DNA of 64,000 nucleotides from a virus (taxonomy: Duplodnaviria > Caudoviricetes), in the IMG/VR virus record IMGVR_UViG_3300031994_000067, positions 15,082 to 79,081 of that record; one strand, given 5' to 3'. Shown here piece after piece: positions 12,452-62,528 of the stretch. The first letter of the stretch is position 1. Each line of letters opens with the position of its first letter. Under the pieces are notes generated by a model that saw nothing but the letters and a program-made list of their open reading frames with translations, was not told the origin of the DNA and did no database searches. Both the position numbers and the translations under genes were made by a program.

Positions 12452-12454
12452 GAG

Positions 12455-14998: not shown

Positions 14999-15005
14999 CC
15001 ATAAA

Positions 15006-15034: not shown

Positions 15035-15045
15035 TGTTTTTTCTT

Positions 15046-15441: not shown

Positions 15442-15456
15442 CTACTTTTCGTGATT

Positions 15457-16485: not shown

Positions 16486-16492
16486 CTCGCTT

Positions 16493-17113
16493 TCAGTCAG
16501 CGTAATCTCTTAAATCGATTTCGTATAGCGAATCCGGACATGTGCAATCAGTAATACTATAAAGCATACTATCCACTATATTAGTGAGAAAGTAATCTCT
16601 ATCAGTATTATACACCGATAATGCTTCATATCCTAAACATAACGCGAGTATTACAGAAGGTATCGACTCTTCCCTCTTCATACCAATATCTTCTTCTTTC
16701 GAAATAGATTTTTCAAATAATCGCTTTTCCTCTGTGGAATTATCAGTCATCTTGTCCAGCCGATTAACAAGACAACTCGATATCTCAAGAGACATACTTG
16801 AATTCTCCATGAAAAATTGAACTGCCGCCCAGCTATATTCTTTCTCCGGTTTAGTAATAACCCTTGAAGAAATGAATAAATCTGAGCCATACTCACAAGC
16901 ATCTTTGTATGCTCGGGAGATGTCAGGATTGTAAATCGTCTTGATATTCCCGCCCATACTTTTAAGCTTTGCAGTCAGATACTCGAGTATCTCTTGAGAG
17001 ATGTTTTTGGCGATTACATTTTCATCTTCTTCATCATCATGTATCTCGAGCCGATATTCGAATGGAATATCTATGATAATTCGTATGTCATTCAATGAAT
17101 CTTCAAGTTCCAT
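16493..17113 (-). CDS. Amidase_3-fold protein lacking the catalytic zinc ligands
   Basis: Motif spacing matches amidase_3 (IIID.., L..KL..MG, SDLFISS, PSVIL), but GH is replaced by PF, SIH by SSR and VE by AL. Confidence 0.45.
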   Translation of the reverse strand: MELEDSLNDIRIIIDIPFEYRLEIHDDEEDENVIAKNISQEILEYLTAKLKSMGGNIKTIYNPDISRAYKDACEYGSDLFISSRVITKPEKEYSWAAVQFFMENSSMSLEISSCLVNRLDKMTDNSTEEKRLFEKSISKEEDIGMKREESIPSVILALCLGYEALSVYNTDRDYFLTNIVDSMLYSITDCTCPDSLYEIDLRDYAD

Positions 17114-25100: not shown

Positions 25101-26202
25101 ACATCTTCTCATAATCAGGACCTGATGTGATAGTGCCATCACCATTTACAACTGTCTTAGTAGGAAATATTGGTTTGCCTGTTACAGAACTATGAACATG
25201 ATTCCGAACCAAAAGATATTTGTAAATTGAGACATTAGTGAATCCGAACACTGCACATAAATCGAACAGAACTTTGTCAGACGATTTAAACGCAAGAAAG
25301 ATATTGAGATTCTTAGCCAATAATTTCATCTGGTCTATAGTCATATCTCCAATATACGGTATACTGTATGAATTAAACAGATACCTCAGTAACTGTGTAT
25401 CATAAAAATCCCTCGTTATACCTTCACGAAATACGGAAGAAAATAAACGTTGGATTGCCATTATGAGAATACAGAATCCGATGAAGTTATCGTAATATTT
25501 GTAGCTTTTAGCGATATTCGGATTGTATATGGCAATCATATAATAATCACGTGCGTTATTGTAGAACTTCTTAAAGTCGAGCTGGATATTATCCGGATTA
25601 GTGGGACGACTGAAAAGGAGTTCATAATTCAACGCTTTTCTTGCCTTATAACAGTCGATTGATCTATCCCCGATATAATTCAGATACAATTTGTCCGGGT
25701 GAGCTTCAATCAACTTTGCCATTATTCCGGTAGACGCTAATCGACCAACACTACCAATATCCAATGAATGTACAGGGATATCAGTTCTAACATCAACCGT
25801 ATTTTCAGGTGCATAGATGTAATCTGTATCATCTACATCGGGTAAACCCATAAGCATTCTATAATAATTATTTCGTTCGACGTAGTTTTCCAAGATATAC
25901 TCTCTTTGCAATTTCAACAATGCTGCTCGAATACCATAAGGTATTTTCTGTTTATCCAAATTATACTCGGTTATATTAGCAGGAGAAACGCCTGCTGCAC
26001 GATAAACTTCATAATTGAAAGTGTTATACGAACTGAAATCATCGATTCCATCTTTAACCATTATATACATTTCGGCATCGCGCATTGTATCGACCGTTTC
26101 ATACTTAGCCGCTTCGTTTCCTCGTTTAACGATCATAGAACGTAAAAGAGTTTTAAGTTCACGAATGAATATATCCATCTGCAAACCTTGATACATCATC
26201 AT
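22186..26202 (-). CDS. Large putative baseplate/virion structural protein with ~57-aa C-terminal repeats
   Basis: 1338-aa ORF with N-terminal NNYYRMLMGLP; repeated (I/L)L(N/G)(Q/E)Y(A/S)D every 56-58 aa; TACA-N6-TA at 26233-26244. Confidence 0.6.
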   Translation of the reverse strand: MMMYQGLQMDIFIRELKTLLRSMIVKRGNEAAKYETVDTMRDAEMYIMVKDGIDDFSSYNTFNYEVYRAAGVSPANITEYNLDKQKIPYGIRAALLKLQREYILENYVERNNYYRMLMGLPDVDDTDYIYAPENTVDVRTDIPVHSLDIGSVGRLASTGIMAKLIEAHPDKLYLNYIGDRSIDCYKARKALNYELLFSRPTNPDNIQLDFKKFYNNARDYYMIAIYNPNIAKSYKYYDNFIGFCILIMAIQRLFSSVFREGITRDFYDTQLLRYLFNSYSIPYIGDMTIDQMKLLAKNLNIFLAFKSSDKVLFDLCAVFGFTNVSIYKYLLVRNHVHSSVTGKPIFPTKTVVNGDGTITSGPDYEKMFEIYFQRVNLKSKDINTALVDRTNRMEYTDMTSGDIYWVDDDELREKIYTAGLNYIESKYISIDIMFKITAMMYEINHFFRMVIDNNDEFRKVYLIAPKISPRPHDLYSFIIFLCAFFCKRYGFTGEIPLRPAAVASVYGFNFHADMAQIIADVVDSKYLDEDVIQYMLNFTVTSNKDVDRIYHNIKALKDFIVEQMASTKDIEVYRAYKKLYNSILVVEDKEVVYQKNDGSYATDYFDLLKDLDIELYFFVDDFDTTSVKDTDEIMIHLLYKLETLCNELKYLHTAVDASALVVVLLRLINFFKSYTVDLSHAGLLYLFDDRYFNMLKILDMIWQTDITWWMYDGFIKYYYDAISGVDIEFSDKEKIQFLEDLYSYVVASVSSKLNLDYSLAEYIDMGGTGSHILNQYADTLALDIDPNNKDYIKIVTQISDFVGEFLINGDISIKDDLSACIRTDAGTKILGEYSDNFSILMSIPDSDRIRLCDVIADFMTKIYFSDKFIFSESLDVTILAEKMEKLLNQYSDDINASVDMTHDNKLNLKECFLHMIVAMVREKLVNRETMTTDVGMTIMVRILNQYSDAFTTLVKNILKHRLTIVDQIVDMMVRYIIDEKININDETIQIVRDEIKTNLIPKMMDKWESSIRFIDDEVMKFIDRLVYVNGSVSESDHMKLMTELVPEVSSYLKSTVYSVELICPSVNKITATVSKFIGKLGDLFVRFLSDSQVKLINKIDSESIDSIIKTDFYRAHHDRISELIRRSVVDKIDLAENFLIIFQIMNKTYIEVLSAKRDKLLKALDYCRDVSGVFFEKDIQKFDVINRTRYIDALLKSTRTIANDIDVNVTRFTSQILEFADTDEWKLSITQSVKADLTEKIEKIIAGVYSNSKLHIESFIYRMIAKDVISTVSEKFRDAMKSVQVEYDIDIGLSTDISRFLVNRTNLEFPRLSLTRSSKRNVSDKFTFKETLTKLGAS

Positions 26203-34731: not shown

Positions 34732-35727
34732 TTATAATATATACTCGAAACCATGTATAAGATTTATGAACAGTGTAAGCCAAGAATCCGGTTTGAATTT
34801 TTCCACATTGAAAGTTTCCGATGTGAAAATTGGTATCTTCTTGTTAAAACGATTCCGAATATCAACTGTATCAGGAACCGGTTTAACTGAATACAATAAG
34901 AGCTCTTTTCCTTCTTCAAGTTTTGCGTCAAACAATGCTTTCGAATCAATCTGGAAAGGATAACATCTTCCAATATGGTAATAAGAAATAGATGTCTCCT
35001 CAGATTTTGCAATGGTATCGAATGTGATGTATCCGAGCTTATTACCGGCTTCTTTAAGACATTCTTTGTACGGGAAGTTATCTGGAGTATATTTGATCGC
35101 ATTCGGATTAACCCCGAGTTCTTCAACCGATTCTCTAAATGCCGTATTGACACATTGATTATCTAACCAAGAAACTTGATTAGTCCCTTCGTAACGAACA
35201 TGACCACCTATCATCGTAGCATGACCAGCAAGGTCAGAACGACTTTCTCGTACGAAAACAAATATCGGCGGAGAATTAGGTTCAAGTATATAAGGAACTG
35301 CCATTGCAACAAGCTGGATATATTCTGGATTATATTCGATTTCAGCTCTCTGTCGATACAGGAGATTAGATTGTTTCGCGTCATCTCTCTTAAAACAAGC
35401 GATGAACTCATTCTTATCATTTCCGTAATAACGAAGAGCAATAATCTTTTTAGCCCACTCGAACGCTTCTGAATCTTGCGGGAAATGAGTAAATGCAAAA
35501 AGAATGAATTCAGATTCTGAATCTACAATGCTACGCGATTCAACAACCATATGCAAATCACCGAGCATCGCTTGCACAAAAGATTCGTAATCGATTTTAT
35601 TAGGTAAATCGTGAAACATTACGTTCCAGTAATCATTATAAAGCTTTTCAGTATCTTTCCATCTCATATAAACTCCTCCAATGATGTAAAAAAGAGCCGG
35701 CGAACAAATGAGATTCGCCAGCCCCAA
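34732..35727 (-). CDS. Nudix hydrolase domain protein
   Basis: GGHV...AFRESVEELG Nudix box with an insertion. True start is probably the internal MRWKD ATG. Confidence 0.65.
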   Translation of the reverse strand: MGLANLICSPALFYIIGGVYMRWKDTEKLYNDYWNVMFHDLPNKIDYESFVQAMLGDLHMVVESRSIVDSESEFILFAFTHFPQDSEAFEWAKKIIALRYYGNDKNEFIACFKRDDAKQSNLLYRQRAEIEYNPEYIQLVAMAVPYILEPNSPPIFVFVRESRSDLAGHATMIGGHVRYEGTNQVSWLDNQCVNTAFRESVEELGVNPNAIKYTPDNFPYKECLKEAGNKLGYITFDTIAKSEETSISYYHIGRCYPFQIDSKALFDAKLEEGKELLLYSVKPVPDTVDIRNRFNKKIPIFTSETFNVEKFKPDSWLTLFINLIHGFEYIL

Positions 35728-43408: not shown

Positions 43409-43469
43409 AAAATCTTCAGATTAGCATTCTGTGCTATAATATATAGACAAAAAACGAGTTAAAGGGGTG

Positions 43470-44470
43470 CGTTAGAAACTCAAAGAAGGTTTTCAATTAA
43501 GTTTCTAACTGCTACCCAAATGACCAAACCCTTGGCTGTCCGACTCCCTTGATTCGCGGAGGCTAACAATTCGAAAATTGCGCCGAACTATCTCAGATAT
43601 ACAAGTCCAATGCACTACATTGAACGAGTCAATACGGACGATTGCTGCCCGGATATGCTGGAATGCGTCTATATACCACTAGGCTCTCAGCGTTCCCCCA
43701 GCGATCAAATCTGGGTTAGGAGCCACAAACGTGCTTTGATGGAATAGACTTCACGGATACTTTTTTGCGTAAGCGAATTCATCATATGAACCCTCTGACC
43801 ATAGCGCGGTCCTGTCGTGTTCAAAGAACGCCAATTATGTTTGTATATCGTCTGGCGGGATTCCACGGAAGCTATCTGTCTGTCATTACAACAGGTTTAA
43901 GTCAGACCTCTTGGATAGGGCGGTACTCGGAATTATCACAACCCAATCGGCCACGCTACTCTACTGACACCGTTTCCATACTGAAGTTCGTTAGAATCAA
44001 TAATAAGAAAAATTCTTTAAACCAGTCGTGGGTGAAATTTTCACGCCTCCTCAACAAGTTGCGGCGAAATACCGACTTCAATCGCAAACCTTTAAACCTC
44101 CTCCATCTATAATAGAATTTCTCAGAGGAAAAAGTTCCTGTCTAAACCACTACATGACATTTTAAAACGTCCTGCGCGGTATATATGTCCATAGGTAATC
44201 TAGGAAAACGCCACCCTCACCCGTCACGTATTTTCCGACCGTATCCCTCTACCGGCTTCTTCTGAGCACTCAAGTTCTTTGCCGTTATTCCGCTGGTTAA
44301 TCAATGACTAGGCAGGGACTGTTATTAACCTTACACATAGTGTAAGTAAGTGAATGCCCAATCTGGAATAAACCAGATTTCTGATATATAGGTATAATTC
44401 CTCCGCAATCTCAATCATGTAACCTGACGCGAAGCGGGGTGTTTTAGCGTTAGCCATCAACCACATATAG
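43470..44470 (-). ncRNA. Candidate large structured non-coding RNA (~1 kb), family unassigned
   Basis: No credible ORF. Multiple hairpins, e.g. AATCTGG-N6-CCAGATT and CTTACAC-N3-GTGTAAG. Preceded by an upstream terminator and CACA-N6-TA (44477-44488), and closed by an inverted repeat at 43471-43509. Strand inferred from these signals. Confidence 0.5.
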
Positions 44471-44562
44471 TCGTGTTAATAGGTTGTGTTTCAAAATCGA
44501 AGAAAAAAAACGCGCCGTATATTTTGATAACGACGCTGATGAGGCAATGCCTCCTCTCTTAA

Positions 44563-44804: not shown

Positions 44805-44894
44805 TTATCTCCGTCCTTTCAAAACGGATCGTAGGTTTCTTCATATCAGTAGTGAGTAATCCTACTTAACTCTTCTACGCGGATATAATATATA
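44805..44894 (-). repeat. 90-bp direct repeat, copy 1 (early promoter + leader + RBS)
   Basis: Identical to 45355..45444; contains TATATATTAT and GGACGGAG. Confidence 0.92.
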
Positions 44895-45354: not shown

Positions 45355-45444
45355 TTATCTCCGTCCTTTCAAAACGGATCGTAGGTTTCTTCATATCAGT
45401 AGTGAGTAATCCTACTTAACTCTTCTACGCGGATATAATATATA
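45355..45444 (-). repeat. 90-bp direct repeat, copy 2
   Basis: Identical to 44805..44894. Confidence 0.92.
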
Positions 45445-45503: not shown

Positions 45504-48500
45504 TTAATAGAGATCGTCTTTAGGTTTGAAGCTTGGATTATCTTTTTGATACATCTCAAGCCACCTACGTTTTAATTCGACGATAACTTTATTTCCGTAC
45601 ATTGTGCAAAAGATTGATGGGGTCATACGTGCTAACACACCCGCTGGTGCGAAAGTTGACGAAATTTCTTCATCAGGTCTATCTATTGAATATGGTTCTT
45701 GTCCTTTTGCGATGAGCTCCAGTAATCTTCGCATAGGTTCGCTAATCCTATGCCGTTCTATTATGAACTGCTACATGTCTCCATGTAAGCTGAGACTATA
45801 TCATCATCTCATAGAGATGTCTCCCATTTCACTCCGCTTGGAGCTACGCCTTTCGGCTAGTCGTTGAACGTTCTAAAAAATCTCGATTCCTTCATCAATA
45901 TAGACAGTATTTTGTACAATAGAAAGATTGGTGTCAACTATTTTCTTCCTGGTTCTATACAATTTTTTCGCAACTTTTTTAGGAACACCTTTTTCAATAA
46001 GAGTTTTAACAATCTTCTTCTTAGACGTTCCACAAATAATTGCTCTGTCTATAGAGTTGAAATAAGTTCTATAAACCACAAACGAATTCGCAAATTTCAA
46101 ATTCAAACCTTCAGTAAGATATTTATAAACACTTTTTGACTTAATTTTTGATATGGTATCATTAGATACACCGGTTAAATCAGAAATTTCGCTCCGCGTA
46201 TAATCACCAGTTTCTAACAATTCGATCACTTTCTTTATATTGGCGATCTTATATTTGTTATTATGGTGATCTTCACCTTTAGGGAGAGATATGAGATTAT
46301 TATCATATGCGTGCTGAATATTCTCAGATTTTGTACACCATTCAAGATTTTCTAATCGGTTATCTGTTTTAATACCATTTTTATGATTAACATCAGGAAA
46401 ATTTTCGGGATTTGGTACAAACGCTTCCATAATCAATCTGTGAACAAATTTATGCACAGTTTTACGTTTGATATACATACTGTATCTCAAATACCCATGT
46501 TTACTTAAAAACGGTTTAAGAAAATGACCAGTTTTTAAGTTTTGTAATCTCCCATCTCTGTATATCATATAATTCGTGAGTTTGGAATTGACGTATACAA
46601 CTTTTCGATCGTCACTATCCACAAATATCACTTCTCTCATCAAAAAATTAAGAATGTGTTTAGTGGTTAATAGAAATGAGTCTTTAGTTTCGCTGCGGAT
46701 TGTCTCTATTCTCACTCTTTTTACCATACCTGAGTAGTTAATTCAGCCGCGTAATACATTACTGCTTACGTTTGGTAAATGAGACCTAACGAGATGTTCC
46801 CGCAATTAAGGAGATTCTAATATGTAGTCACCTACATATAGGGTCAGTATAGGCCGTTTACATACTTCCAAATATCTTCGCATAGGTTCGCTAATCCTAT
46901 GCCGTTCTCTTATGAACTGCTCTACGTCTCCGCAGAAGTTGAGACTATATCATCATCCATATAGGATGTCCCCCATTTCGCTCCGCTTGGAGCTACTCGC
47001 TTTCGCGATAGTCGTTGAACGTTCCTTCTATAAGAAGGCTTCGCTGCTGATTATCTTTATCTTACCGATTTTTACACTTGGTACGATAAGCATATCAAGA
47101 CTTCCCAGCAATTAAAGGAATTTTATCAATGTTGATTTCTCAACAAAGCCACTATTTGTGTTAATGGCTGTAAAATGGACCAATTTATCCAATAACTTCA
47201 CATAGGTTCGCTAATCCTATGCCGCTACTTAGCTGCTGCATGTCACCATGCAGATGAGACTATATCTTCACCTCAGAGAGGTGTCTCCCATTTCGCTCCG
47301 CTTGGAGCTACTCGCTTTCGCGATAGTCGTTGAACCTTCCTATTACAGGCTTGGCTGCTGATTGTCTCATAATGAGAGTTTCCAGCAATTAGAGAGATTC
47401 ATATCCGTGATCACTCACGGATCGGGCAATAAATTTACCTACATCAAGATAGTCCTTGTATTTGATGAAAAATTTAATCAGAACGCCAAGATGAACTTTA
47501 ACACCCATGATCTTTCCATCTTCTCCACCGTCAACAACCACAGCCTTTTCACTGAATTCCAGACCGTTGACATCTCCACCACGTCTCTTAATCTCAGCTT
47601 CCTGTGCTCTAAGTCTGGCAAAATAAGCATCGACGATCTTCTTCAAAGACGGAGAAAGTTCTTTAGGTTCGACGGTTGTGTATATTCGTATATCTTCAAT
47701 CACTCCAGCATACTTGGATTTAACCGGAATTTTACCCATAAGCGTGATTTCTTCTTTCAACTCTTTACCAATGTTAGCCAACATCTTGTTGAATGAAGCG
47801 TCCTGAGATGAATTATCGTATATAATCAGTGGGTCATTTACATTTACCTGCTGACCTATTTTGACGATGTAATCAACATTCGAGTTCATTCCAACTATAG
47901 CTTCTGCTTCCATACATACTTCAGTTCCTAACTTCTTCGAAAGTTTATCCGTAACGAAATTACCATCTTCGAAGCTGGTATATGTAGCCATGCAAGCCAC
48001 TTTAGTAAGAGTTCCTATGTTGAATCGTACACCTTCAGCCGGAGAACTCGAAAAGTATCTTTCGTTATATGCAAGAACAGAATTTTTCTTAAAATAAGTT
48101 CCCGGTTTAAGTGCGTCTGTATTCATCTTACTGGGCAGGTAAAACCCACCTGCTCCATTTTTGACGACTTTTGAATTAGCGTTAATAACTTGACGTTTCA
48201 ATTTTCCTTGGAGATTCTTATATTCGATTACAATAACCCCGGTCTTATCGTCTCGTGAAATTACCTTACCATCATCTTTCGCTACTATACAGAAATCAGT
48301 AGAAAGATGATAAGGTAAAACTTTTTCAGCACCATTTGATATTAGTACCGGAGACGCATGTTCTACGGGGATGATGTGCTTGCTTTGTTTGACAGCCATT
48401 GAGACACGAATCTGATCATCCCGATTCAATCCTGGGGTAAGCATTTCAGCCATACTAAAAATATTAGAATCATCCAAATCTCGTTCATCCGAAGGTTTTA

Positions 48501-51500
48501 CATACCCACGACCATTGACCACGTTCGGGTTTATAGTCAAACTTTTGGTGATGCCGACATTAGCATCTGGAGATTGCGGAATTGCTATAACTCCAACCAT
48601 GCTCTTGTCGTAACATCTACGTTTCAATGTGTAGGCCTCTTTCAAATTTGTCCCGCTGGGTGTTGTGTTCACATAGGTTCGCTAATCCTATATCGCTCTT
48701 TTAAGAGCTGCTGTGAGTCCCCCCACAGACCAGACTATATCTTCACCTCTATGAGGTGTTCCCTGTTTCGCTCCGCTTGGAGCTACTCACTTTCGTGATA
48801 GTCGTTGAACCTTCCTTCTAATATAGAAGGCTTGGCTGCTGATTGTCTCTATTCTACCGATTGTTACACTTTGGTACGGTAGACCTAACGAGAGTTTCCA
48901 GCAATTAAGGGAATTTTTGTTATATGATTACTCATATAAAGAGCCTCAGTTAACCCTTGTCGGTCAAAAGATGACTTTTCTCAACCTCTACAATAGGACT
49001 GAGTTCAGAAACATCTTCAACAACTTGTGACTGCATTATATCTTTGATAATCGTTCCTTGTGGAATCGAAATCTTCGTCGGATTCTTATTTCCCGAGGTC
49101 ATTCTGTATTTACCGTATGCCTCAGAGATCGCTTTAAACGCATATGCATAAGCCATTTCATTACTACGGATTCTATAGTTTCTCATATCGAGTTCGCTGA
49201 TGTAACTATTATCAGCAAGCAATTTATTTCCTGCTAATAACAACCCCACAAAATCAGTAGGATAATTCAAATCCTCTAGTATCTGAAGAGTTACTGGGTC
49301 AATCATCCAATCATAAAAGTTATCAAGAGCGTTAGCTAACATCCTGGTACCAAACAGTACATCGAATAAGCTAACGTATACATCCTTCGCGTCCATCTCG
49401 GCATACTCAAATCCGCGAGTATCAACCATTCCAAATCCGTTCATCAATAACGAAACTTCTAACGGGAATTTGTCATATACAAGATAACCATCTGAGAATG
49501 GTATAACTCCCTTGTTGACAGCTTCCATTTCTCTAAGACGCGGTCTTGTATCTGAAAATTGGAATTTGACTTCAGCTTTACGTAATACAGTGGTTAAACC
49601 CTCGCAATAAGATAAAAGTAATACAAGTGGAATATCTTTCTTCATTATCTTACAGCGAGTGTACATGAACCGTCTTCCGGATTTAATATCTGCGAATTTC
49701 TGTATATCGATTGAATCTCCAAGATATTGGATAACGTGATCACAAATTCCCATTATTGGTGTAGAATCAACGTTTTCATCTTTGATTACTTCGGGGGTTT
49801 CGACGGATTCTTTGGAAGCAATAAATCGGGAGAGATTAGATCCAATTTCTCCAGATTTTTTTCGAATTGTATTAACGAATCTTTCAAACGGTGTATAAGT
49901 AAGAACTTTACCATCTTCGGAGAATATACACCCTTCAGACTTTTTGATTATCTCAATTTGAGTGAGTCGTTTATCACCATACAGTTTATCGATGAACTCC
50001 AAGTCTGCATCCGTAAAATATCCGTTTCGAATAATTAGTCGTCTTTCATCTTTTTTTCTAGACACGAGATTCATTCCATAAATTTGTCGATTACCTAGCA
50101 TTATCATATAGAAGAAATCACGCATTCTTTTAGTATATTTATCAGCCGCCTGTTCATATGTGAGAAAAGGACCTGAAGTATCGTTAAATATACCTCCATA
50201 GCTGAATATATAAACTCCGGACTTACGACGAACCATTGTTACAAAGTGTGAGACACATTGCATAGTTGCAGATGAACCGTTCTCTACATTAAAGAATCGA
50301 GCAAATCTGTAGATTCTAGCAGGGATGTTATTTCGTTTAAAGAAATAATATGCAAATATTGCTTGGTCAAAACAATTTCCGATTTTTTCTCGTAAAATAT
50401 CTTCTGGCCAATGAACTTCACCTAACCATTGTACTGGTCCATAATTGTTGCGTTCTTTGTATTCCGGCCACTTGATGTGATTAGCTTGAAACCAGGTGAC
50501 CAAATCTTCGAAAGTCTTAAATTGTTTGCAGAAATCATCAAGAGTTTTGTATTTCTTAGTATAAACAGAAATCTTGTAATCTTCTTGAACTGGTTCCAAT
50601 TCTCCTGATTTTATCAACTCCAGAGCTTCCTTCGCAACCTTCTTTTCTTTCGGAGTCTGGTATTGCTTAGACCAAGCAAGCAACTTGTAAAAAACTCCGG
50701 TAATCTTAGGAATTCTGATAAATCTAAAATCTCTAGAGAAGAAGTGAGTAGACCAAAGATTGTCTCCACCATCCGCATACAAGTAATCTTTCTGGACGAT
50801 GTCTTTATTCAGATACTTGTCGAGATGTTCGGTTTCGGAGTATTCTTGCACTGACCATTCTGTACTATCTGAGACTGGAGCGTCAAATCCTTTATTTGGA
50901 CTTGATAACAGTAATACTTTGTAGAATTCGGTAACTTGTCCAGCTGCATCATACCAACTTTTGTACGGTCCAGTGATAATTCCATGACCAGGTCCGATGT
51001 AAAGCCAAGCATAAACATATTTTCCACGTTTAAACAACGGGAATATATGACCAGCTGAGGTTCCGTTTTCGAGTCGTATGGTGAACAGCGCCATACGATG
51101 TTCAATATGCCGTTTCTTGAAAAAGAAGTGCATCATGACAGACTGGTCGAGACAATTCCCTTTACGTTCTTTAACCAGTGTGTCAGGCCATCTCATTTTA
51201 TCATTATTGGCTTTATCGTTCCAAACGACCTTGTTGGCTATAAACCAATTCATCGCATCTTCTGGGGTTTTACATTCGTCACAAAATTCCTTAAAGTTTT
51301 TAGCCTTAGAAGATTTGAATTGTTTAGCCGATTCTTCTATCACTTCCAACATTTCCTTGACTTTTGTAGGAGGCGGTTCCGTCAAGAAACAACACCAATG
51401 AAGTTTACCAGATTCATCAAGTTCCATTTCCTCGTAAAAGTTTTCGATACCTTTCTCTGTTTCTTTGATGATAGTTCGTTCATATGGTTCAAAATCGGTT

Positions 51501-54500
51501 CGTCTTTTCGGTATTGCACCAAACAACTTCGTATTGTAGAATAATTCGAAATGTAGATGCGGGTGTGATGAATTACCAGTGTGACCAAGTTTTCCAATAA
51601 CTTGACCACGCCTCACATTATCACCTATTTTCACACAAATGGAATTGTCTACCATATGCCCGTACATAGAATAGAACTTACCATTTTCGTGTTCTAAAAT
51701 GACAGCGTTTCCGAATGCCATTATGTTTTCTTTAAATCCTTTTGTTAAATCGAAATGTTCTTTGTGAACATCAAACGTGCCGTCTTTATTGATTATTGCA
51801 ACAACCGTTCCATCATTACACGAGAGAACATCATTTCCCAATGCGCCAAAAGTAAGTGAAGTGCCTTTGAATGCAATAAAGTCCACCGCGTCCAACTGAT
51901 CTTTTAATACCACAGCAATATCTCTAATAACCAATCCAATTGCTTCACAGACTTTCGGTATAGAGCGTACTAAACCAAAAAACGTATCTCCATATTCATC
52001 TTTCGACTTATTAATCGTCGACATTATAAATCCGGAGTATGCATTAATTGTGTTTACGATATGGCTGTTAAAACAGAGAAGTCTCTCACCGGGATTTAAC
52101 TCGAAATTATCCAAATCCAATGGAATAATGTTTTTCTTCCCATTACTGAAGAAACCTTCCTCAACTACCTCAGCCGATTCTTTAACATGTAGCGAATCCT
52201 CAGTGATAAAGAACGCAGTGTCGAATTTTCCGGTCTCGTTCATTTCCATCTTCGAGTCATACGCTGTTTCAAAACTCGACTTTTTAAATGCGTCTATTAT
52301 ACCACCTATTTTTGTACACTTAAAGGGGGCGAATCCAGTATGGTCTATACCCCATCCATAATCTTTCCAAGTAGTACCGCTTGTTTCAAAATGCAGATGA
52401 GGTATTGTACAATCGCCTGTATTCCCAATTCGTCCAATGATTTGACCTCGACGAACCTTGTCACCTTTCTTAACAGTAATCGAATTGTTTGCCAAATGAG
52501 CATAAAGTGTGACAGTCTTATTGTCATGCGCGATTATTACAGTATTTCCTTGAGGACCTACTGTATCGCGTAAACGATTAACGATGCTGGCTTTTCCGAT
52601 ACCATCTTGAACTTCAACGACGGTTCCATCGTCACACGATAACACTGGGAATCCATCCAAATCCGGTGTTAGAACCTGTTCTCTATTTACAGACACTATG
52701 TCCATAGCCGCTACAGATTTTCCATATGTCATGTATAAGTCAAAACCTTCCCATCCCATGTTTGTTAGAAAATCGTGTTTTTCACCGTACTTATAAGATT
52801 TATAAGCGGTTGAGATGGTTCTTCCTACTCCTTTAAGAGCGGTAATTGTAGCATGAGGATTAAAACAAAGAACACGTGTTCCAGGACTGTTATATTTGCT
52901 TAAATCAACTGGAATTATCTTATTACCAATAACCCGATCGTTGGACTCTTCAACGATTTCCATAGAATCCATGTGTTCAATAAACGAATCGATGTCTGTA
53001 GATTCGGTAAAAAAACTAAGCGCCTTGTCTTTCACTCGCCGTATACCGTAACGAATGATGACTCCGAGAATAGCGGTGCGAACTCTGAGATATTCGAAAT
53101 ATTTCTTCTGTTCAACAGGTTTTATTTTGCCCTCTTTGTACTCTTTAAACACAGCGTCTGCTTCGGGAAAATATTTCTCACTGAACTCATCTCTGTCTTT
53201 TACCGGCGTATTGTAAAACTTGTCCCAGATCTTCTGTTCATCTTCCGAATAGATGTAATAACCAGATTTAGTCTCGTATCCGACATTTTGCTTTCGCCCC
53301 CATAATTGAAGCAATTCATTCATATCATCAACATACTGGTCAACAGAATCAAATGGACCTTCGATAACGTTTCCGTTTTTCTGCCTGTAAGGTTGTGGAT
53401 CGAATTCATACCAACGTCCATCTTTCTCGAACAACGTTATGATATGACCGCAATAACTCTGTTCGGTTTTACCAGTCTTATCATCATGATCTATAAGAAT
53501 AACGTATGAAGAAACTTGCTTGTTAGGTATACCCTTTCTATTGCAGAAATAATGCATGAACAGAGCATGATCGTAACAGTTACCAATTTTATGCTTGATA
53601 ATATCGTTCGGCCACCTAAATGGGTGATCAGAACCGGTTTCACCAGGAGGCCAAATGACATGATTCTTTGAATACCATGTGGCAACTTCTTCTGGTGTTT
53701 GAATGTATTCACAAAACTCGTCGAAATCTTTGTATTTTTGAGTATATATTGAAGCCTCTTCAATGACTTCCATCGACTCTAAAGATATCCCCTGATGTGG
53801 GTCGATTCGCAGTTCTTCGAACTCCCATATAGGGTACCAATCACCTTTTTGTGCCAAAGAATCTTGGTCAACTTTATCAACCTTTTTCTTGTAAGGTCCA
53901 TCATAATCGGCTGTGAAGACAAAAGTAATTGCGCCAACGTACTTTAATCCAATAGGCCACAGTATGCGTTTATGCCACTCCGGAATTGTTTTCGGGTCAT
54001 ATTTGACGATATAATACTTGCCAGTGTAGTGAACGTTTTTAACTTTCGCCAATATCTCTTCGTTAACCTCACATTCAGCTTGCTCCGCCAACGATTTGTC
54101 AGGCTCGACCGAACCACCTGGAAGTTTGTACATTGAACCATAGTGTGAGATTTCTTTCTTCTTTTCGAAGAATACGCAACTTGTACCGTTTACTTCTCGT
54201 TTAACGATGGTTTCTACCCTGACTCTGTATTGCTGACCGTCAATAAGATATACTCCGTTTGCTATTCCGTCATTATCATAAATGAATTCCATATTCTTCT
54301 TAACGTCAGCATACGTGAGTTTCTTGTCGATATATTGATGAGATTCTTCCACAGCATTTTCGTTTACAGCTTCGATAGAGACTGGCTGGTATGATGCGAA
54401 GTTAGCTTCGAGATTATCAGTAGTGAATCCATTCTCTTTATCGTTAAGAGTCCGCATTCTCATACCTACCTGAGTATCATCAAAGCAGTATGACCCATCA

Positions 54501-55666
54501 CCTAAATCTTTGACAAAGATTCTTGTGGGGTAGCCAGGAACTGTATCACCGGGAAGTATTTCTGTCGTAACTGATTCGACAGTACCTTTTGGGTTTGTAG
54601 GTAGAAATTTCATAGGGTCATTTTCGTTCACCCGAATAAACTCATGAGAATCGTTTACATATTTCAACAAATCGTGTTGAAGTCTCTTGTCAGAAATACT
54701 CGCTTCTACTTCCATATTATCGTCCTGATCAAATATCCAATAATTCAATTCAGTTCTCTCACCAACAATTTTTTCCACCCTCGGTCTGAAAAACTCCATC
54801 TCCATACGTACAATTTCATCAGGTTTTGTGTCGAAATAGGATATGATTTCTCCGGAGGGGTGTTTATCTTGTTCAGTAACAAACCGAAATGCATAGTATT
54901 TATTGTTGTATTTCCAAAACGCAAATAAGTGTCCAAATGAGCTTTCGCCGTTTTTGTACAAAAATTTCATCCATGCGATTTCCCCGAAACATTTTTTCTT
55001 TAAATTTCGCGACCGCTTACAAATTTCATACACAGCTAAAGCTATATCAACACAATTAGCACGTTTGCTTTTCTCGATGTCTTCCAAAGATTGAATCGGA
55101 TTCGAATTGTTGTTTCCGTTTGAACTTTCTGTGGTTTTGATAACCTCATTTTTCATCCAATTCATGAAAGTCCATGGTGTTTTGAATTTTTCACGCAAAA
55201 AGAGCCTGACACCTTTCATGCATTGATCATACTCGTCTTTGCTCATCTCACCCATTTTCTTTCTGAATTCTATCTCAGATATTGGAAAAAAGACAGAGCC
55301 ACATGAAAAACTCGGTTTTGTAAACCCATAGCGGTTCCAGTTCTTGATAGTGTAGTTGTATTCGATTACTTGAGCACGTAGTTTGCTTTCCTTATCTTTT
55401 TCAACCGAACTACACATCAAAAATCTAAGATCGCCGTTTCCTAAATCGATTATGATTCCCCAACGAAACTTCATATCGTCCGCAAAATTAAAAAAAGGAA
55501 AGCCTGCGTGATAGACTTCCCCAACTTTCACAGACGAAAGATTCACCGATTCGGAAACAGCGTCGTTCGAATTTGCATATAATGCGTCGAGTTCCTCGTC
55601 GTCATATATCGGGTTTGACGCTTCCAGTAACGAAACCCATTCTTCATCGTAATTATCCAGACTCAT
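45504..55666 (-). CDS. rpoB: Cargo polyprotein fused to the RNAP beta C-terminal half (probably virion RNAP). Five exons: 48953..55666, 47437..48660, 47164..47189, 46853..46868, 45504..45719; about 2730 aa
   Basis: Spliced product reads DKG/PSGTN (fork loop 2), SPDANVG, AVKQSKH, KVVKN, DVG/DKL..TAM/KYVNG/ELI and ARMTPS. Upstream ~1950 aa hold MazF-like, four Cys-His papain-like, Nudix and two M23 domains. RBS GAGGTG and AACA-N6-TA (55689-55700) precede ATG 55666. Confidence 0.85.
45720..46852 (-). mobile_element. Group I intron D with an HNH endonuclease; 5' splice site appears non-canonical
   Basis: TAATTGCGGGAAC, AATCCGCAGCGAA, TTCAACGACTAG and GATATAGTC; 3' end gaagattactG with P9.0 UC:GA and AG:CU. 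5' boundary inferred from protein conservation. Confidence 0.8.
45873..46640 (-). CDS. Intron-encoded HNH homing endonuclease (NUMOD4-like + HNH + HTH)
   Basis: [29 protein letters not shown]. Start uncertain; the in-frame extension to 46727 overlaps the intron core. Confidence 0.88.
   Translation of the reverse strand: [255 protein letters not shown]
46869..47163 (-). mobile_element. Group I intron C (ORF-less, 295 nt)
   Basis: Core motifs present. P1 AGCCAU:GUGGCU with a U.G pair; ends gaagatatttG with P9.0 UC:GA and AA:UU. Confidence 0.85.
47190..47436 (-). mobile_element. Group I intron B (ORF-less, 247 nt)
   Basis: Core motifs present. P1 GGU:GCC; P10 UUUAUU:GAUAAA; td-like P9 CTGCATGGTGACATGCAG. 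Splicing restores the conserved GDK. Confidence 0.9.
48661..48952 (-). mobile_element. Group I intron A (ORF-less, 292 nt), apparently ending in A instead of G
   Basis: Starts TAACTGAGGC, like T4 td. P1 AAGGGU:GCUCUU; core motifs present; 3' end tgaacacaacA precedes CCCAGC. Confidence 0.82.
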
Positions 55667-56189
55667 CTCTTTCACCTCTTTCTTCAAGTAATTTGATGTT
55701 CCATTTATCATCGAATATCGATTCTGCATTCTCAGATTCCCTAACTTCAATAATCATGTCGCCGTTTTGCATGACAAGATTCCGTTGCAATGAGTTGGAA
55801 TAATTATCATCTGAAGTTCCTTCCCAAGGCAATGCAATGTAGCAATTCGAATCGTCTTCAAATATCAAATCGACGTGAGTAATATCACACCATTTCAGCA
55901 AATGATCAAAGGGTTTCATTGGTTCATTTATATCCAACCAACGCTCTATGACATTTGCCGATTTCTTAAGTATGCAGAACATCCCTTTTTTCGCTTTGAA
56001 CTTTTCGTAAAACGTTTTGTGAGGTTCGTAATACGAGTAATTGCGTACGATTTCAAACAAATCAAAATCATGGAGGTCATCGGATGTAAATCGAAGTGTT
56101 GAGCATCCTTCAGTAACGAAATCGATAAACTTAATACGCGCTTTCTTCATCATTATCAAACTCCTTTCGAGAAGATAATATATATCCAC
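55653..56189 (-). CDS. Early-type hypothetical protein
   Basis: AAAGGAG RBS before the internal MMKKARI start; TATATATTAT at 56175-56184. Confidence 0.65.
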   Translation of the reverse strand: MDIYYLLERSLIMMKKARIKFIDFVTEGCSTLRFTSDDLHDFDLFEIVRNYSYYEPHKTFYEKFKAKKGMFCILKKSANVIERWLDINEPMKPFDHLLKWCDITHVDLIFEDDSNCYIALPWEGTSDDNYSNSLQRNLVMQNGDMIIEVRESENAESIFDDKWNIKLLEERGERDESG

Positions 56190-56347
56190 GATTTACTTTA
56201 GAATACCTTTGATTATCGTTCTGTCTCATACGTAACTTCCCTGTTAAAAAAGGACTTCTTTCAATTAAGATCGCTAACGCAATTAGGTAATCTTAAACAA
56301 ATTAAGACCTTTATAAAAAAATGCTACCCCTACATAAAAAGTAAACA

Positions 56348-56555
56348 GGGACATTGGGGAGGGCGGTCGGGAGAGATGTGACACTAGAGAGAAGAAGAGA
56401 GGAAGGGAGAAGAGAAATAGAAAAGGAATAAATAAATGAAACAAAGGTAATTGATTAGATAAAAAAGATTTTGATAATGTAATTAAAAGAAAGCGAAGAA
56501 AAAAGAGAGAAGCGAAGAGGAATGGAGGGGATGGGGGGTTATAGGGGGGAAGGGG
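56348..56555 (+). other. Strand-biased purine-rich tract bounded by two G-quadruplex-type motifs
   Basis: GGG-ACATT-GGGG-A-GGG-CGGTC-GGG (56348-56371) and GGGG-AT-GGGGGG-TTATA-GGGGGG-AA-GGGG (56527-56555). Confidence 0.7.
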
Positions 56556-56681
56556 ATCTGTACTACGAAACCTCTGAAAAACGTCAAAAAAGTTGAAAAC
56601 AGAGACAAAAATCGTCTCTGTATAAACACGCTTTTTACACCATTCACAGAACTATAACTACGCAAAGAAAGGAGAAACAAA

Positions 56682-59600
56682 ATGATTACGATAGATAAAC
56701 TGAAAGACTTCAAATTGTATAAAGAACGATTTATTGTTCCAGTAGACAAAGAAGATATTCATAAATCAAGTTGTGTCATTCTGTTTACAAGACACCAAGA
56801 CTCAATCTTATCAGTTTTAAACAATTCATTCATGGATGATAAAAATCTCTTCAAATATGTGTACAGAGAAAGAGATATAACCTTAAGACTTAAGACTGAT
56901 AAAATCGTTGAAAAAGGAACACGAATGCGTAATGAATACTACGAAATGTGTAGAGAAAAACTCAAACTCTCCGGTATTATTGCTACATCAAATCTTGGTG
57001 AAAAGAATTTCTACTTCGATACATACAGAGAACATGAACTCTTCTTAGACAATACCAAGAAGTTAAATAAATTAACGAAAACTTCAGAATATCTTACAAT
57101 ACTTAATGCAAATTTCTTTGATATACCGATGATCAAGGAATATAAAGTCAAGACGGTATTGATTCAATTAGAAGACTGGATTGATAATATTTCTGAAGAT
57201 AATCCGGCAAGTTTGTTACATTATGCAAGCTGGAAACTCTTCGATAAATTCAAAGATCTCGGGGATATAGATTTTGTATTTATCACCAAAGAATCAGTGT
57301 TTAAGATGAACCCATCAAGGTGTACGAACACTTCCCATGTCGAATTCTTGAAAGCACTGAAAACGTTAAACAAGACTATCGTATTACCAGATAACGAAGA
57401 TGGCAATGTTACTGATATGATTAACTCAGAGATTGCTATGGATGACGATGATGATTCAATTGATGATGAATTAGCTGAAAAAATTCAAAAGCAGGAAGAA
57501 CAGGGCAAGACATCTGATGAAATTGCTGAAGACATAATTAATGACCCTGAAGAAGCTAAGAAAATTGCGGATAAGGTTCTTGAACCCATCATTATCAAGA
57601 AAGATGCAATTTCTAAACGCGACATGGAACTCAGAGAAAAACAAAAAAGTCTTAAGATGAATGGGATTACTATGAGTGAGTTGCATGATAAAAAGGTCGA
57701 TTATGCTGAAATTCCGGTAAATGATGTATCTGGTTCTGTCAATACTTTGAATAAGAATATCACAAGAGTTCAATTCGTCAATTTTCCTGAAACGTACAAT
57801 GAGCATTACTATCAGAAAGACATTATGTCTATAGCTGATGCGATGAAAGATAAATCGATTCCTGTATTTGTACGAGATATGAAAAAGGAAGATACTTCGG
57901 ATTCTCTTAACCAAAAAGAAACTTACACTTTCTATCTTGAAGATTCTAACCGCGGAAGACATACATTGAAATTTGATATGCCTAAATTCATCGAAGGAAA
58001 GTATATGTATCTCAACGGTCATAAAAAGCAATTCAATAATCAAAGAATTGCAAAACCGCTGATTAAAACCGGTCCTGATACAGTGCAGGTGGTTACCAAT
58101 TACAATAAGATTTTCATGACTCGTCATGGTGAAAAAGTTGAAGCATTATATGAGAAGTTTAAAGAGTTGGTTATTAGTGACCCTAAACACTTCTCATATA
58201 AACGTGGTGATTGTTCCAGATTGAATACCGAATATAAAACGACGATCGAATACGATACCTTGGCTAAACAATTTGCGGAGATCACTGTTAAACCTCCTAA
58301 GGGAGATAAACTTCACCTTATATTTAGCCAACCAAGGTTAAAGGAAATCTGTTGTACAAAACTCGGAGCTGAAGGACTTTGGAAAAAAGTTCAAGATGAA
58401 GGTACTCAGATGGTTGCTGGGTATTATGAAGGATTGAAGAAAAGTTCTTTATATATCTTGGATTTGAACGCATCCGAAATAACTCCATCTGTTACAACCG
58501 AATCTGTTGGTGATGCATTTCCGAGCATGGACTACATTGAAAATTCGAATAATGCAATTATGGATTCATTAAACAGAACGCAATACAATATTGATATTGC
58601 TGAATCAAATATTGAGAAAGTAATTGAATATTGTCGATTAGAACCTTCAGAGATTTACTTTGATATTCAAACAGAAGATGCTGTGCATGAAGGAATTCTT
58701 TCATCAGTATGGAAAGGAATAAAATCTCTGGTCAAAAATCTTCTAAAGTTAGTTCTCAAAATTTGGAATGGAGTAATGTCGATATTTAAGTTCATCTTCA
58801 AGAAAATATCAAATTTCTTCAGCGGTAGTTCTTCAGGTGTTTCTAGCACCAGTTTTGTTCCTCAAGAAGTTTCGTTTATCTCTTTAGAATCGGCTAAGGT
58901 GGAAACGGTCGAGGTTAGTTCTCAGAAAGAACTTCAGGAAATAATTGTAGAACATATTGAATCTATCAGCCGCGAAATAAGAGAACGGAGTCGAATTCAA
59001 ATAGAAGCTACCAAAGAAATGGAAGAATTAGTATCTAACGAGAAAGCTGTTCAGGAAAGAGTCGTAATAGGTGGAGAGTTAGATTTACGAGATGAATCTG
59101 GACCTGGTAGTGGCGACGACTACCTGTTTTCATTTCCCAGCAGGGATATGGTTTCATCTAAACAACTCGTGACTCCAAGCAGATTTGATAAAAAGTCGTT
59201 CGATCTTATAAGCAAAGCTAATGATATGGCAAAAGCATATAATGATTGGATAGATTTGGATATTGAAAGAATAATGCGAACTGACTATAAGCCTCAACCA
59301 TCTGGTGCTACTAATCCGGATGAATCTGGCAACGAATTCTTTGTACAGATTGCGGTTGCAGGTTTATTACAAGAAGGATGGAAAGAAAAAGAAATTTCTG
59401 ATTATATTAAAGGCAAATTCTATCGTGTACCTGATAACCCGGAAGATATAAAACGACTTGTAAACATCAGACTGAACTACAATAAAAGAATTTGTAGCAT
59501 TTTGGAAAACATGCTCCGAATAAATTACTCAATGCTTGGTGTAACAGTTGAAACTTCCAATCAGATTATTGAGCGTTTACGCGAAGGAGATACTGAAGCC

Positions 59601-60260
59601 ATTAGTCGTGTGAATGAAATCATCGAAAAGAATAAATCCAAATTTGTCAAGGAATTGATACATAATGGTTTTCATCACAATTATTTGGATTTTACTCCTA
59701 TTGGTGGTGGTATATGCTATTATACACATAATGATTTGGCTAATATTAAAGAAATTTTCCTCGGTAACACCGAACGATTTTTTAGTTTAGCATTACGATT
59801 CGATTATGTGATATTAGGACACGGCGGTGTAGGTCGAAAAGGTTCTGTTAAGGACAAACTTTTTGATGAAAATTCAGAATACAGAGAACTTGAATATGCT
59901 CGTTCCGATATCGAATTTGACGTATCCAGTGGAAACCCTGTAAAACGAGACCCGAGTTCATTTACAGAAGATGAAATGAAAGAATTGCAACGAATACGTA
60001 CTAAGTTGAATGAAATTGAAGATCGAGCAGGTATCCGATATTGGAGTATACAACCAGTTGCTACACAAAATTTCCCATCTACAGATGATGTGAACGAACT
60101 TCTCAGGAATGTTATCGAAGAAGGAAGAATGGCAGGAAAAACTCGTATTAAGATTTTTCTACTCTGCTGCAATGGCGGTCATTTTGTTCTTGACGATAAT
60201 GTCCGTAATGCTAAAGGAGTAGCCATTGTCTGTGCGTCTAATAAGATGCTTGCTGATTAA
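56682..60260 (+). CDS. rpoB: RNAP beta N-terminal half (probably virion RNAP) fused to a ~590-aa C-terminal cargo
   Basis: KFDMPKF..GKYMYLNG.KK..NQ...P..K..P..VQ..NYNKIF corresponds to the beta F.ING.E.V..Q region. After VTTESV the sequence becomes a head-protein-like amphipathic helix plus an HG...CCNGG domain. CACA-N6-TA at 56645-56656. Confidence 0.78.
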   Translation: MITIDKLKDFKLYKERFIVPVDKEDIHKSSCVILFTRHQDSILSVLNNSFMDDKNLFKYVYRERDITLRLKTDKIVEKGTRMRNEYYEMCREKLKLSGIIATSNLGEKNFYFDTYREHELFLDNTKKLNKLTKTSEYLTILNANFFDIPMIKEYKVKTVLIQLEDWIDNISEDNPASLLHYASWKLFDKFKDLGDIDFVFITKESVFKMNPSRCTNTSHVEFLKALKTLNKTIVLPDNEDGNVTDMINSEIAMDDDDDSIDDELAEKIQKQEEQGKTSDEIAEDIINDPEEAKKIADKVLEPIIIKKDAISKRDMELREKQKSLKMNGITMSELHDKKVDYAEIPVNDVSGSVNTLNKNITRVQFVNFPETYNEHYYQKDIMSIADAMKDKSIPVFVRDMKKEDTSDSLNQKETYTFYLEDSNRGRHTLKFDMPKFIEGKYMYLNGHKKQFNNQRIAKPLIKTGPDTVQVVTNYNKIFMTRHGEKVEALYEKFKELVISDPKHFSYKRGDCSRLNTEYKTTIEYDTLAKQFAEITVKPPKGDKLHLIFSQPRLKEICCTKLGAEGLWKKVQDEGTQMVAGYYEGLKKSSLYILDLNASEITPSVTTESVGDAFPSMDYIENSNNAIMDSLNRTQYNIDIAESNIEKVIEYCRLEPSEIYFDIQTEDAVHEGILSSVWKGIKSLVKNLLKLVLKIWNGVMSIFKFIFKKISNFFSGSSSGVSSTSFVPQEVSFISLESAKVETVEVSSQKELQEIIVEHIESISREIRERSRIQIEATKEMEELVSNEKAVQERVVIGGELDLRDESGPGSGDDYLFSFPSRDMVSSKQLVTPSRFDKKSFDLISKANDMAKAYNDWIDLDIERIMRTDYKPQPSGATNPDESGNEFFVQIAVAGLLQEGWKEKEISDYIKGKFYRVPDNPEDIKRLVNIRLNYNKRICSILENMLRINYSMLGVTVETSNQIIERLREGDTEAISRVNEIIEKNKSKFVKELIHNGFHHNYLDFTPIGGGICYYTHNDLANIKEIFLGNTERFFSLALRFDYVILGHGGVGRKGSVKDKLFDENSEYRELEYARSDIEFDVSSGNPVKRDPSSFTEDEMKELQRIRTKLNEIEDRAGIRYWSIQPVATQNFPSTDDVNELLRNVIEEGRMAGKTRIKIFLLCCNGGHFVLDDNVRNAKGVAIVCASNKMLAD

Positions 60261-60268
60261 AAGCGTAA

Positions 60269-60300
60269 TATAGAGAGAACGTTTGAATGTTCTCTCTATA
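60269..60300. terminator. Bidirectional terminator hairpin
   Basis: TATAGAGAGAAC-N8-GTTCTCTCTATA between convergent genes. Confidence 0.75.
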
Positions 60301-60679
60301 TTTGACCATTTTTACCCAGATAAATCTCATACTGTTTCTCTACTAAAGCGACATATAAGTCTATCACCTTATCGACCAATTCGTATAGTATTGGTTTACT
60401 AAATGTGAGCTCCGGTAATCCATATATGCCGTATTCTTTTTCTTCGGTTATTGCAATAATGCTTTTATCGAGAAGATTGACTAACACGTGACCGTGAAAT
60501 ATTCGAGGTTCAGTCCACATCTCGAACGAAAATTCACCATTAAACCACCCGAGATTATTCCAATTATTTGGAGATTTGGTTATACGCACATCATATCCTT
60601 TATATGTGAAATGATGATATTCTTCACGAAGTTGACGTAATCCAATTGGAAGTCTGCAAGGTTCAATCATTTTAATCAC
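60296..60679 (-). CDS. Hypothetical protein
   Basis: 127-aa ORF with GGTAGGTG RBS and CACA-N6-TA at 60686-60697. Confidence 0.6.
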   Translation of the reverse strand: MIKMIEPCRLPIGLRQLREEYHHFTYKGYDVRITKSPNNWNNLGWFNGEFSFEMWTEPRIFHGHVLVNLLDKSIIAITEEKEYGIYGLPELTFSKPILYELVDKVIDLYVALVEKQYEIYLGKNGQI

Positions 60680-62247: not shown

Positions 62248-62528
62248 ATAGATTCACCTCCTTAATGGATAACACAATTGACTCACACTCACCAAGCTAT
62301 AATATATATCTCAGTATCGTGTTTATCTTACGTTCCTCAGAAAATTAAAAAGCGGAAAAGAACCAGACTTTTTCAAGTCTGGTAACGTATTTTCAGCGTT
62401 GGGTAATCGAGCAATGAAGTACAAATTTCATTCAAACTATTGTAAACTCATGGAATTATGAAAATGTAATCGAGTATATATTATATTTTCGTAGTGCGGG
62501 CTACAATCAAAATGTTAAAGGAGGATGA

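Follow-up and report, generated by a model that had tools for sequence, protein, structure and literature searches.

A virion-type RNA polymerase beta gene divided at a surface loop, with cargo on both parts and one part inverted, in an uncultured relative of jumbo phages

Two opposed genes at one locus

Two long open reading frames (ORFs) lie on opposite strands between 45.5 and 60.3 kb of a stretch of virus DNA, hereafter the window, which comprises the final 64 kb of the 79,081-bp IMG/VR virus fragment IMGVR_UViG_3300031994_000067 (rated 32% complete). The plus-strand ORF (56682-60260) encodes 1,192 amino acids (aa) and the minus-strand ORF (55750-48950) 2,266 aa as listed. An earlier note on this DNA had proposed that they hold the two parts of an RNA polymerase (RNAP) beta subunit, separated into divergently transcribed genes with cargo at the point of the split. 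Homology establishes the predicted product as the beta subunit of an AR9/phiKZ-type multisubunit virion RNAP (vRNAP) in an uncultured relative of the jumbo phages, and both the split and the opposed strands hold: the N-terminal part, betaN, ends near 58502 (...SVTTE) and the remainder runs from near 49798 (...ESVE). Cargo is found at both new ends, as aa 608-1192 of the plus-strand ORF (cargoA) and as the ~1,956 aa with which the minus-strand gene starts (cargoB). Our reading of this arrangement, to which we give a probability of roughly 0.6, is that vRNAP beta was split at a loop, that both halves were fused to cargo and one of them was inverted, and that the parts would be released by a prohead protease and ejected into the host.

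As the reference for a contiguous beta we used IMGVR_UViG_3300045988_098660 (G001; 194.7 kb, with terminal repeats and mostly syntenic with the window's fragment), in which beta is a single 1,444-aa ORF without cargo. The arrangement was compared with five contigs of split-bearing relatives (L019, L020, L022, L023 and L024) and with L021 (contig Ga0247608_10000550 of JGI 3300028805, 59 kb), a near-identical second contig. A search with the cargo part of the minus-strand gene recovered the polyproteins P0004-P0008, the last of which is intronless and guided the placing of intron and exon borders. No closer relative was found in a scan of viral contigs with the whole plus-strand ORF as query, and a metagenome scan for closer relatives returned only relatives at 30-38%.

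The features of the locus are collected in Table 1. For the minus-strand gene the start codon is ATG 55666 and not the TTG of the ORF list; in L021 the gene is called at the same start. Ahead of it lies a 167-aa gene, homologues of which also precede the cargoB-beta gene in L019, L020 and L022. The stop codon that seems to end the minus-strand ORF at 48950 belongs to a group I intron, of which it forms the first three bases; this intron is the first of four that interrupt the beta portion (exon 1 spans 55666-48953; all borders were set by colinearity with P0008). The introns were scored against Rfam RF00028, for which the gathering score is 50 bits. All four share the 3′ tail ...CATAGGATTAGCGAACCTATG followed by 11-12 nt, and the fourth contains an HNH homing endonuclease ORF (45873-46727), the identical L021 gene of which matches PF13392 (HNH_3). 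Predicted splicing restores ...VGDKLVHFTAMKYVNG..., colinear with intronless relatives, and the joined exons form one frame of 2,731 aa, in which ~775 aa of beta follow cargoB. The last 760 aa can be aligned over their full length with P0008 (74% identity) and with G001 beta 683-1444 (57%).

The plus-strand gene, described in the earlier note as isolated among minus-strand genes, is indeed the sole credible gene on its strand between about 30.7 and 62.5 kb, and GC skew flips sign across it. It has the ribosome-binding site (RBS) AAAGGAG and a conserved TAAACACGCTTTTTAC element upstream. The inverted repeat beyond its 3′ end is predicted to form a hairpin and is a candidate two-way terminator.

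Table 1. Features of the locus, in window coordinates. Arrows mark domain borders at proposed cleavage motifs.
Feature	Position	Strand	Description
Exon 5	45504..45719	-	71 codons and stop; beta C-terminus; G001 beta 1374-1444, 72% identity
Group I intron 4	45720..46852	-	1,133 nt; RF00028, 42.8 bits, below the gathering score
Exon 4	46853..46868	-	16 nt, ...MKYVNG
Group I intron 3	46869..47163	-	295 nt; RF00028, 96.4 bits
Exon 3	47164..47189	-	26 nt, DKLVHFTA...; colinear with ...VGDKLVHFTAMKYVNAE... of intronless relative
Group I intron 2	47190..47436	-	247 nt; RF00028, 101.2 bits
Exon 2	47437..48660	-	408 codons of beta; phrog_14872 positions 920-1315; G001 beta 950-1359
Group I intron 1	48661..48952	-	292 nt; RF00028, 100.2 bits
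Beta-mid	48953..49798	-	beta after the split loop, to the end of exon 1; preceded by ...ESVE↓TPEV
CargoB	49799..55666	-	~1,956-aa polyvalent cargo, about nine modules; Pfam and PHROG matches
167-aa gene	55653..56156	-	operon head with its own RBS; overlaps cargoB-beta start by 14 nt
Divergent control region	56157..56681		homology to L020 upstream region; promoter motif
ATATATATTAT-N6-G	56174-56186	-	before 167-aa gene; fits AR9 early consensus
BetaN	56682..58502	+	first ~607 aa of virion-type RNAP beta; end ...SVTTE↓SVGDAFP
CargoA	58503..60260	+	~585 aa joined to betaN C-terminus (aa 608-1192); no family found
Inverted repeat	60267..60302		17 bp, 94% complementary; between convergent ends of plus-strand gene and 127-aa minus-strand gene

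The two parts of beta complement each other

By tblastn, both pieces match one and the same gene in AR9, PBS1 and the Staphylococcus jumbo phages, at places 20-66 aa apart. The PHROG RNAP-beta profile phrog_38251 is matched by aa 258-560 of the plus-strand ORF at profile positions 307-614 and by aa 1988-2266 of the minus-strand ORF at positions 660-938. On G001 beta, betaN aligns with residues 28-641, and the minus-strand gene covers residues 658/683-949, 950-1359 and 1374-1444 without overlapping the part held by the plus-strand gene; the stretch 658-949 corresponds to beta-mid, which was aligned with five relatives. As judged from these alignments (28-641 against 658 onward), the two predicted parts sum, free of overlap, to the relative's contiguous beta, so that they complement each other as the earlier note had supposed. 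As to the catalytic double-psi beta-barrel region with its conserved lysines, the Pfam family RNA_pol_Rpb2_6 was matched on the relatives only.

We modelled residues 230-950 of the contiguous G001 beta with AlphaFold2 (mean pLDDT 76.6). Model residues 425-451 (beta 654-680) have pLDDT below 50 and are flanked on both sides by residues above 85. The fold of the model matches chain c of the AR9 non-virion RNAP (nvRNAP; E 1.2e-7), then chain E of the phiKZ nvRNAP and then bacterial beta; by sequence alone, the contiguous beta matched no PDB chain. Both of these phage chains are single chains of 484-488 aa. The break falls within this one betaN polypeptide of the solved phage enzymes and therefore represents an extra split, and we conclude that the beta gene underwent fission at a surface loop that is predicted to be disordered. 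Contiguous relatives have motifs of Glu followed by Ser or Ala in the same loop, for example ...EVVSE↓SMEVVVED↓T... in G001, and the unsplit relatives P0017 and P0018 carry inserts of 195-230 aa at exactly this site.

A second RNAP beta-like gene (phrog_2987) lies at 9581-11065 on the plus strand of the window, with an early-type motif at 9551-9561 before it. It is probably a piece of the non-virion RNAP.

Cargo modules at both new ends

The cargo of the minus-strand gene comprises a weak MazF/PemK-like N-terminal module, transglutaminase/papain-like domains, a weak Nudix module and two M23 peptidases. Above the Pfam cut-offs are the two Peptidase_M23 domains and Transglut_core (aa 687-785); weaker matches were obtained to NUDIX (sub-threshold) and DUF553 (aa 1751-1809), and two more Cys...His modules were recognised by eye and by internal similarity. 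Several unrelated enzymatic domains are thus combined in one phage polypeptide, as in polyvalent proteins (Iyer et al. 2017).

BetaN itself is 82% identical at the aa level to the stand-alone 623-aa betaN of L020. The cargoA that follows it is 60% identical to the fused form in L019, has a dN/dS of about 0.16, and is represented in G001 by a stand-alone 630-aa gene 70 kb away. Its N-terminal part is hydrophobic and helical, and its C-terminal domain has a His and a Cys that are nearly invariant in the alignment of homologues (H447 and C563). No Pfam or PHROG family was found for cargoA, PHROG giving weak tape-measure-like matches at most, and fold searches with Foldseek and VIA-align yielded no convincing match. 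A guess from the His/Cys pair that cargoA is caspase-like found no support in any fold match and was dropped.

Fission preceded the inversion

In all of P0004-P0008, which are 49-72% identical, cargo is fused ahead of the same beta piece, and on all five contigs of split relatives betaN is encoded upstream, in a gene of its own that shares the strand of cargoB-beta. These contigs differ in what betaN carries and in what stands between the two genes. In L020 and L022, betaN has 623-626 aa and no cargoA, with a 307-311-aa gene between; in L023 and L024 it has 626 aa (cut by the contig end in L024), with a 719-aa M23 gene between; and in L019 a 1,174-aa betaN-cargoA fusion is separated from cargoB-beta by three small genes. 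The order of the flanks is conserved (397-aa gene, 127-aa gene, betaN, 167-aa-gene homologue, cargoB-beta), and the window departs from it in one respect, namely that betaN-cargoA and the region upstream of it point the other way.

A quick maximum-likelihood search on the betaN region placed the split forms in one clade (SH-aLRT 99) with the contiguous forms outside it, and the window as sister to the co-directional L020 and L022. Because the split clade is monophyletic and the window is nested within it beside co-directional relatives, the fission is old and the inversion recent and terminal: fission was ancestral to this phage clade, and the first gene, together with its upstream region, was inverted in this phage alone. 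The proposal that a break was followed by an inversion is thereby borne out, with all five split relatives co-directional. We also considered whether one inversion, reciprocal between an intact beta gene and a divergent gene for cargoB-cargoA, had given both fusions in one step; we rejected this since in the relatives cargoB-beta and betaN share a strand, with or without cargoA.

After betaN, the cargo is absent in L020 and L022, a P-loop kinase in P0011, and cargoA in L019 and the window. The module sets before beta-mid also vary between lineages, and relatives have GNAT or P-loop kinase modules. Since the cargo differs between lineages, much of it was added or exchanged after fission. All parts are conserved (dN 0.09-0.34, dS saturated). 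The idea that cargo had accumulated in an internal loop of beta stands in part: the break in the loop and the 195-230-aa inserts agree with it, but no unsplit gene with large enzymatic cargo came to light. The search for a long unsplit cargo-bearing relative, a check that the earlier note had named, returned P0159 only and none with large enzymatic cargo, a negative that is weak evidence.

Three relatives depart from these arrangements. P0020 has a MazF-like and a papain-like module ahead of betaN, P0153 has Nudix and DUF6582 ahead of a contiguous beta, and in P0159 a contiguous beta bears a C-terminal extension of ~790 aa.

Proposed release by a prohead protease at the linkers

A linker of the form ME(V/I)(V/I)EE↓(S/A/G) occurs four times at module borders of cargoB, along with AVEE↓S, and is conserved in relatives. 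BetaN ends in SVT(T/M)E↓S(V/I)GD in the split forms, the stand-alone betaN proteins of relatives stopping a few residues past the motif, and beta-mid is preceded by ESVE↓(T/Q)PE. A Glu at P1 and a small P1′ residue at domain borders are what substrates of Peptidase_S77 proteases display, and a gene for a prohead protease of this family (T4 gp21-type) is present in L019 and G001. The SPN3US protease gp245 cleaves after A-X-E, its preferred residues being Val at P4 and Ser at P1′ (PMC10052503), and the vRNAP beta of 201phi2-1 sheds a propeptide at TFE-275 (PMC5694885).

We propose that both fusion proteins would be made late, and that the beta parts, joined with the other vRNAP subunits into a complex, would bring the attached cargo into the prohead; in SPN3US, the vRNAP must be assembled before its subunits enter the prohead (PMC5694885). 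An S77 prohead protease would then cut after Glu in the hydrophobic-x-Glu↓Ser/Ala/Gly linkers, freeing betaN, beta-mid with the C-terminal part, and the modules, and the polymerase would be ejected into the host with the DNA, together with cell-wall peptidases, papain-like enzymes, Nudix and other modules. Delivery of the cargo into the host with the DNA is suggested by its covalent fusion to a piece of a virion RNAP. Because the loop would be nicked in any case, continuity, order and strand would be unconstrained, and fission, cargo swapping and inversion could be tolerated.

A number of points weigh against this reading. Cleavage, packaging and ejection are inferences, that of cleavage being drawn from motifs alone, and no match to S77 (PF03420) was found in the 79-kb fragment, although the same search was silent in control genomes too. 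The vRNAP beta of SPN3US is reported to be unprocessed (PMC5694885), so beta is not processed in every case. That the enzyme is of the virion and not the non-virion kind is taken from best matches that are annotated as virion RNAP, and the nearest conserved promoter motif of the operon is of the AR9 early type, not late. As to the gene model, the homology-set borders leave intron 1 (48661) ending in A and not in the usual G, and the exon before intron 4 (46853) ending in C and not in U. Finally, the tree that orders the events is that of a quick search and not of a finished one.

The split and the inversion might be real and the cargo nevertheless remain uncut, the polymerase working with ~2,500 aa hanging from its surface loop. 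There is precedent in the N4 vRNAP, which is packaged as an unprocessed giant protein (PMC5512222), and in the unprocessed SPN3US beta; attachment at a surface loop also means that the cargo need not block folding. We nonetheless regard this as unlikely, since a linker motif stands at every module border and is conserved across relatives that are 49-72% identical, the same motif marks the loop of contiguous relatives, and the relatives' stand-alone betaN proteins stop just past it.

It is less likely still that the cargo is freed by cysteine-protease-like domains of its own (the transglutaminase/papain-like modules, or the His/Cys domain of cargoA) instead of by a prohead protease. Transglut_core exceeds its curated cut-off, the weak DUF553 match and the two further Cys...His modules add to the candidates, cargoA has its nearly invariant His and Cys, and three transglutaminase-like modules start right after a linker. 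However, Glu at P1 together with a small residue at P1′ is characteristic of gp21-type prohead proteases (PMC10052503), the linkers are conserved in L020 and L022, which are without cargoA, and no fold match supports cargoA as a protease.

Proteolytic cleavage also underlies a broader proposal, which we hold tentatively and at somewhat under even odds. Across the clade, vRNAP beta may be a capsid-targeting and ejection carrier for exchangeable host-attack enzymes, borne at its N-terminus, at its C-terminus and in an internal protease-nicked loop, with the nicking having allowed the split, the reloading and the inversion.

The inversion and its control region

L021 is 99.989% identical to the window over 19 kb and has the same divergent layout. 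Its ends differ, and it continues 7 kb past the end of the window's contig; the same layout on a contig with different ends argues against misassembly. Each of the two big genes of L021 has a single frameshift (5408-8985, 459+725 aa; 10001-16716, 1,471+767 aa), and these are either sequencing errors or real variants.

Within the divergent control region, 360 nt (56315-56675) share homology, G-rich tracts and TAAACACGCTTTTTAC (56623-56638) included, with the sequence that precedes betaN in L020. Imperfect inverted repeats, 146 nt (71%) and 55 nt (85%) long, flank betaN of L020 at 6263-6652 and 8630-8913 and also include the G-rich tracts; of this element the window has kept one copy, which lies at 56315-56675 between its two divergent genes. 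A part for repeat-driven recombination in the inversion is thus suggested but not proven. Inverted repeats flanking the plus-strand gene were looked for in the window and none were found, and a crossover between flanking repeats in the window itself was rejected, there being none and one copy of the element having been kept. The locus accordingly lacks the flanking repeats of a programmed invertible segment of the Gin/Hin/Cin type. No Pfam family was found in the flanking 127-aa and 397-aa genes, so there is no invertase among those two; the scan left out the 220-aa and 185-aa genes further right.

We regard it as very improbable that the two genes diverge through faulty assembly or as one setting of a programmed switch: the locus does lie 3.7 kb from a contig end, and the 146-nt and 55-nt repeats that bracket betaN in L020 could drive flipping, but L021, whose ends differ and which reaches 7 kb further, shows the same layout, repeats around the gene are missing in the window, neither scanned neighbour is an invertase, at the junctions the terminator hairpin is coherent and the upstream element occurs once, and with its own upstream region the gene would be expressed in either orientation.

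Relation to known virion RNA polymerases

The closest described counterparts of this gene are in AR9, PBS1 and the Staphylococcus jumbo phages, whose beta is homologous over both halves at 30-39% aa identity. In AR9/PBS1 the gene (NC_031039.1, 149146-155764) carries the annotation of virion RNAP beta, its coding sequence being put together from six pieces. As in AR9, the gene described here is interrupted by introns with HNH homing endonucleases, and the early promoter motif is enriched in the window. Unlike it, the beta of these phages is encoded by one gene, with no cargo at the split point and no inversion.

In RNAPs of the phiKZ/AR9 type, beta is in two pieces in the nvRNAP and three in the vRNAP (PMC7824862, PMC7598289). 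The present case resembles these canonical splits in that a catalytic subunit is encoded in pieces that need reassembly, but it differs from them in lying within the single betaN chain of the nvRNAP and in having cargo on both new ends. As the split in the window has contiguous close relatives, it is a datable, lineage-specific extra fission.

The recurrent x-x-Glu↓small motifs are like those in substrates of giant-phage prohead proteases (phiKZ gp175, SPN3US gp245, T4 gp21), and vRNAP beta is a protease substrate in 201phi2-1, as we suppose it to be here. The known prohead cases involve the cutting of N-terminal propeptides, whereas the cuts proposed here would free about ten enzyme-sized modules and would fall within a loop of the beta fold.

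Polyvalent proteins include N4-like vRNAPs fused to peptidase, ART and lysozyme modules (PMC5512222), and in the Thermus phage P23-45 the virion RNAP is fused to the tape-measure protein (PMC10770324). What the window shares with both is a covalent link between a virion RNAP and a series of unrelated effector or structural modules that go in with the DNA, as proposed here for the cargo. The N4 (T7-like) and P23-45 enzymes are single-chain, unlike the present one, in which the cargo is borne by a piece of a multisubunit enzyme, at a break within the subunit, and the gene of the carrier is divided and in part inverted. Our literature search turned up no multisubunit vRNAP piece bearing a polyvalent enzyme train, no split at this site and no case of one half being inverted. 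The arrangement, if correctly read, would extend the idea of a polyvalent carrier from the N4-like enzymes and P23-45 to multisubunit virion RNAPs. Delivery of the injected enzyme set (M23, papain-like, Nudix, GNAT, kinase, MazF-like) would then be coupled to the first transcription of infection.

On the origin of the RNAP pieces in jumbo phages, reviews have speculated about introns and rearrangements (PMC7598289). Related genomes here offer a series of intermediates: a contiguous gene whose disordered loop has a protease-like motif, unsplit genes with inserts of ~200 aa in the loop, a split co-directional pair with variable cargo, and a pair with one half inverted. These intermediate states make the route to split subunits testable and, if our reading is true, the locus would show in a present-day phage lineage how jumbo-phage RNAPs can come to have split subunits.

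Promoter motifs and other observations

The window has 13 matches to the motif TATATATTAT(A/C), more than the 2.9 expected, and several of them stand just upstream of gene starts. Copies include those at 8982-8992, 9551-9561, 34733-34743, 43435-43445, 44884-44894, 45434-45444, 56174-56184, 62298-62308 and 62475-62485. The motif fits the core of the AR9 early (virion RNAP) consensus, AAATATATATTAT-N6-G; the published AR9 early promoter consensus is ATATATATTAT-N6-G (PMC5312081). For the AR9 late consensus, AACA-N6-TR, there is no such enrichment, the window having 75 matches where 93 would be expected. The minus-strand gene has AACA-N6-TA 21 nt ahead of its ATG at 55666, and the plus-strand gene has an approximate version, AACA-N7-TA. 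The earlier claim that each gene has its own late-type motif and RBS therefore held for the RBS of the plus-strand gene and was weakened for the motif, which occurs before 55666 but is of a kind not enriched; on the sequence, a late-type motif is plausible for the minus-strand gene and approximate for the plus-strand one, and unproven for both.

Downstream of the beta gene, about 1.1 kb of the window (43410-44560) has raised G+C and is without a convincing ORF; no Rfam family was matched there at E up to 0.1. At 22186-26202 on the minus strand, a 1,338-aa 'virion structural protein' (phrog_20751) aligns with its 969-aa counterpart in G001 over the first ~730 aa only, and its last ~600 aa may represent a further case in which a lineage has extended a virion protein.

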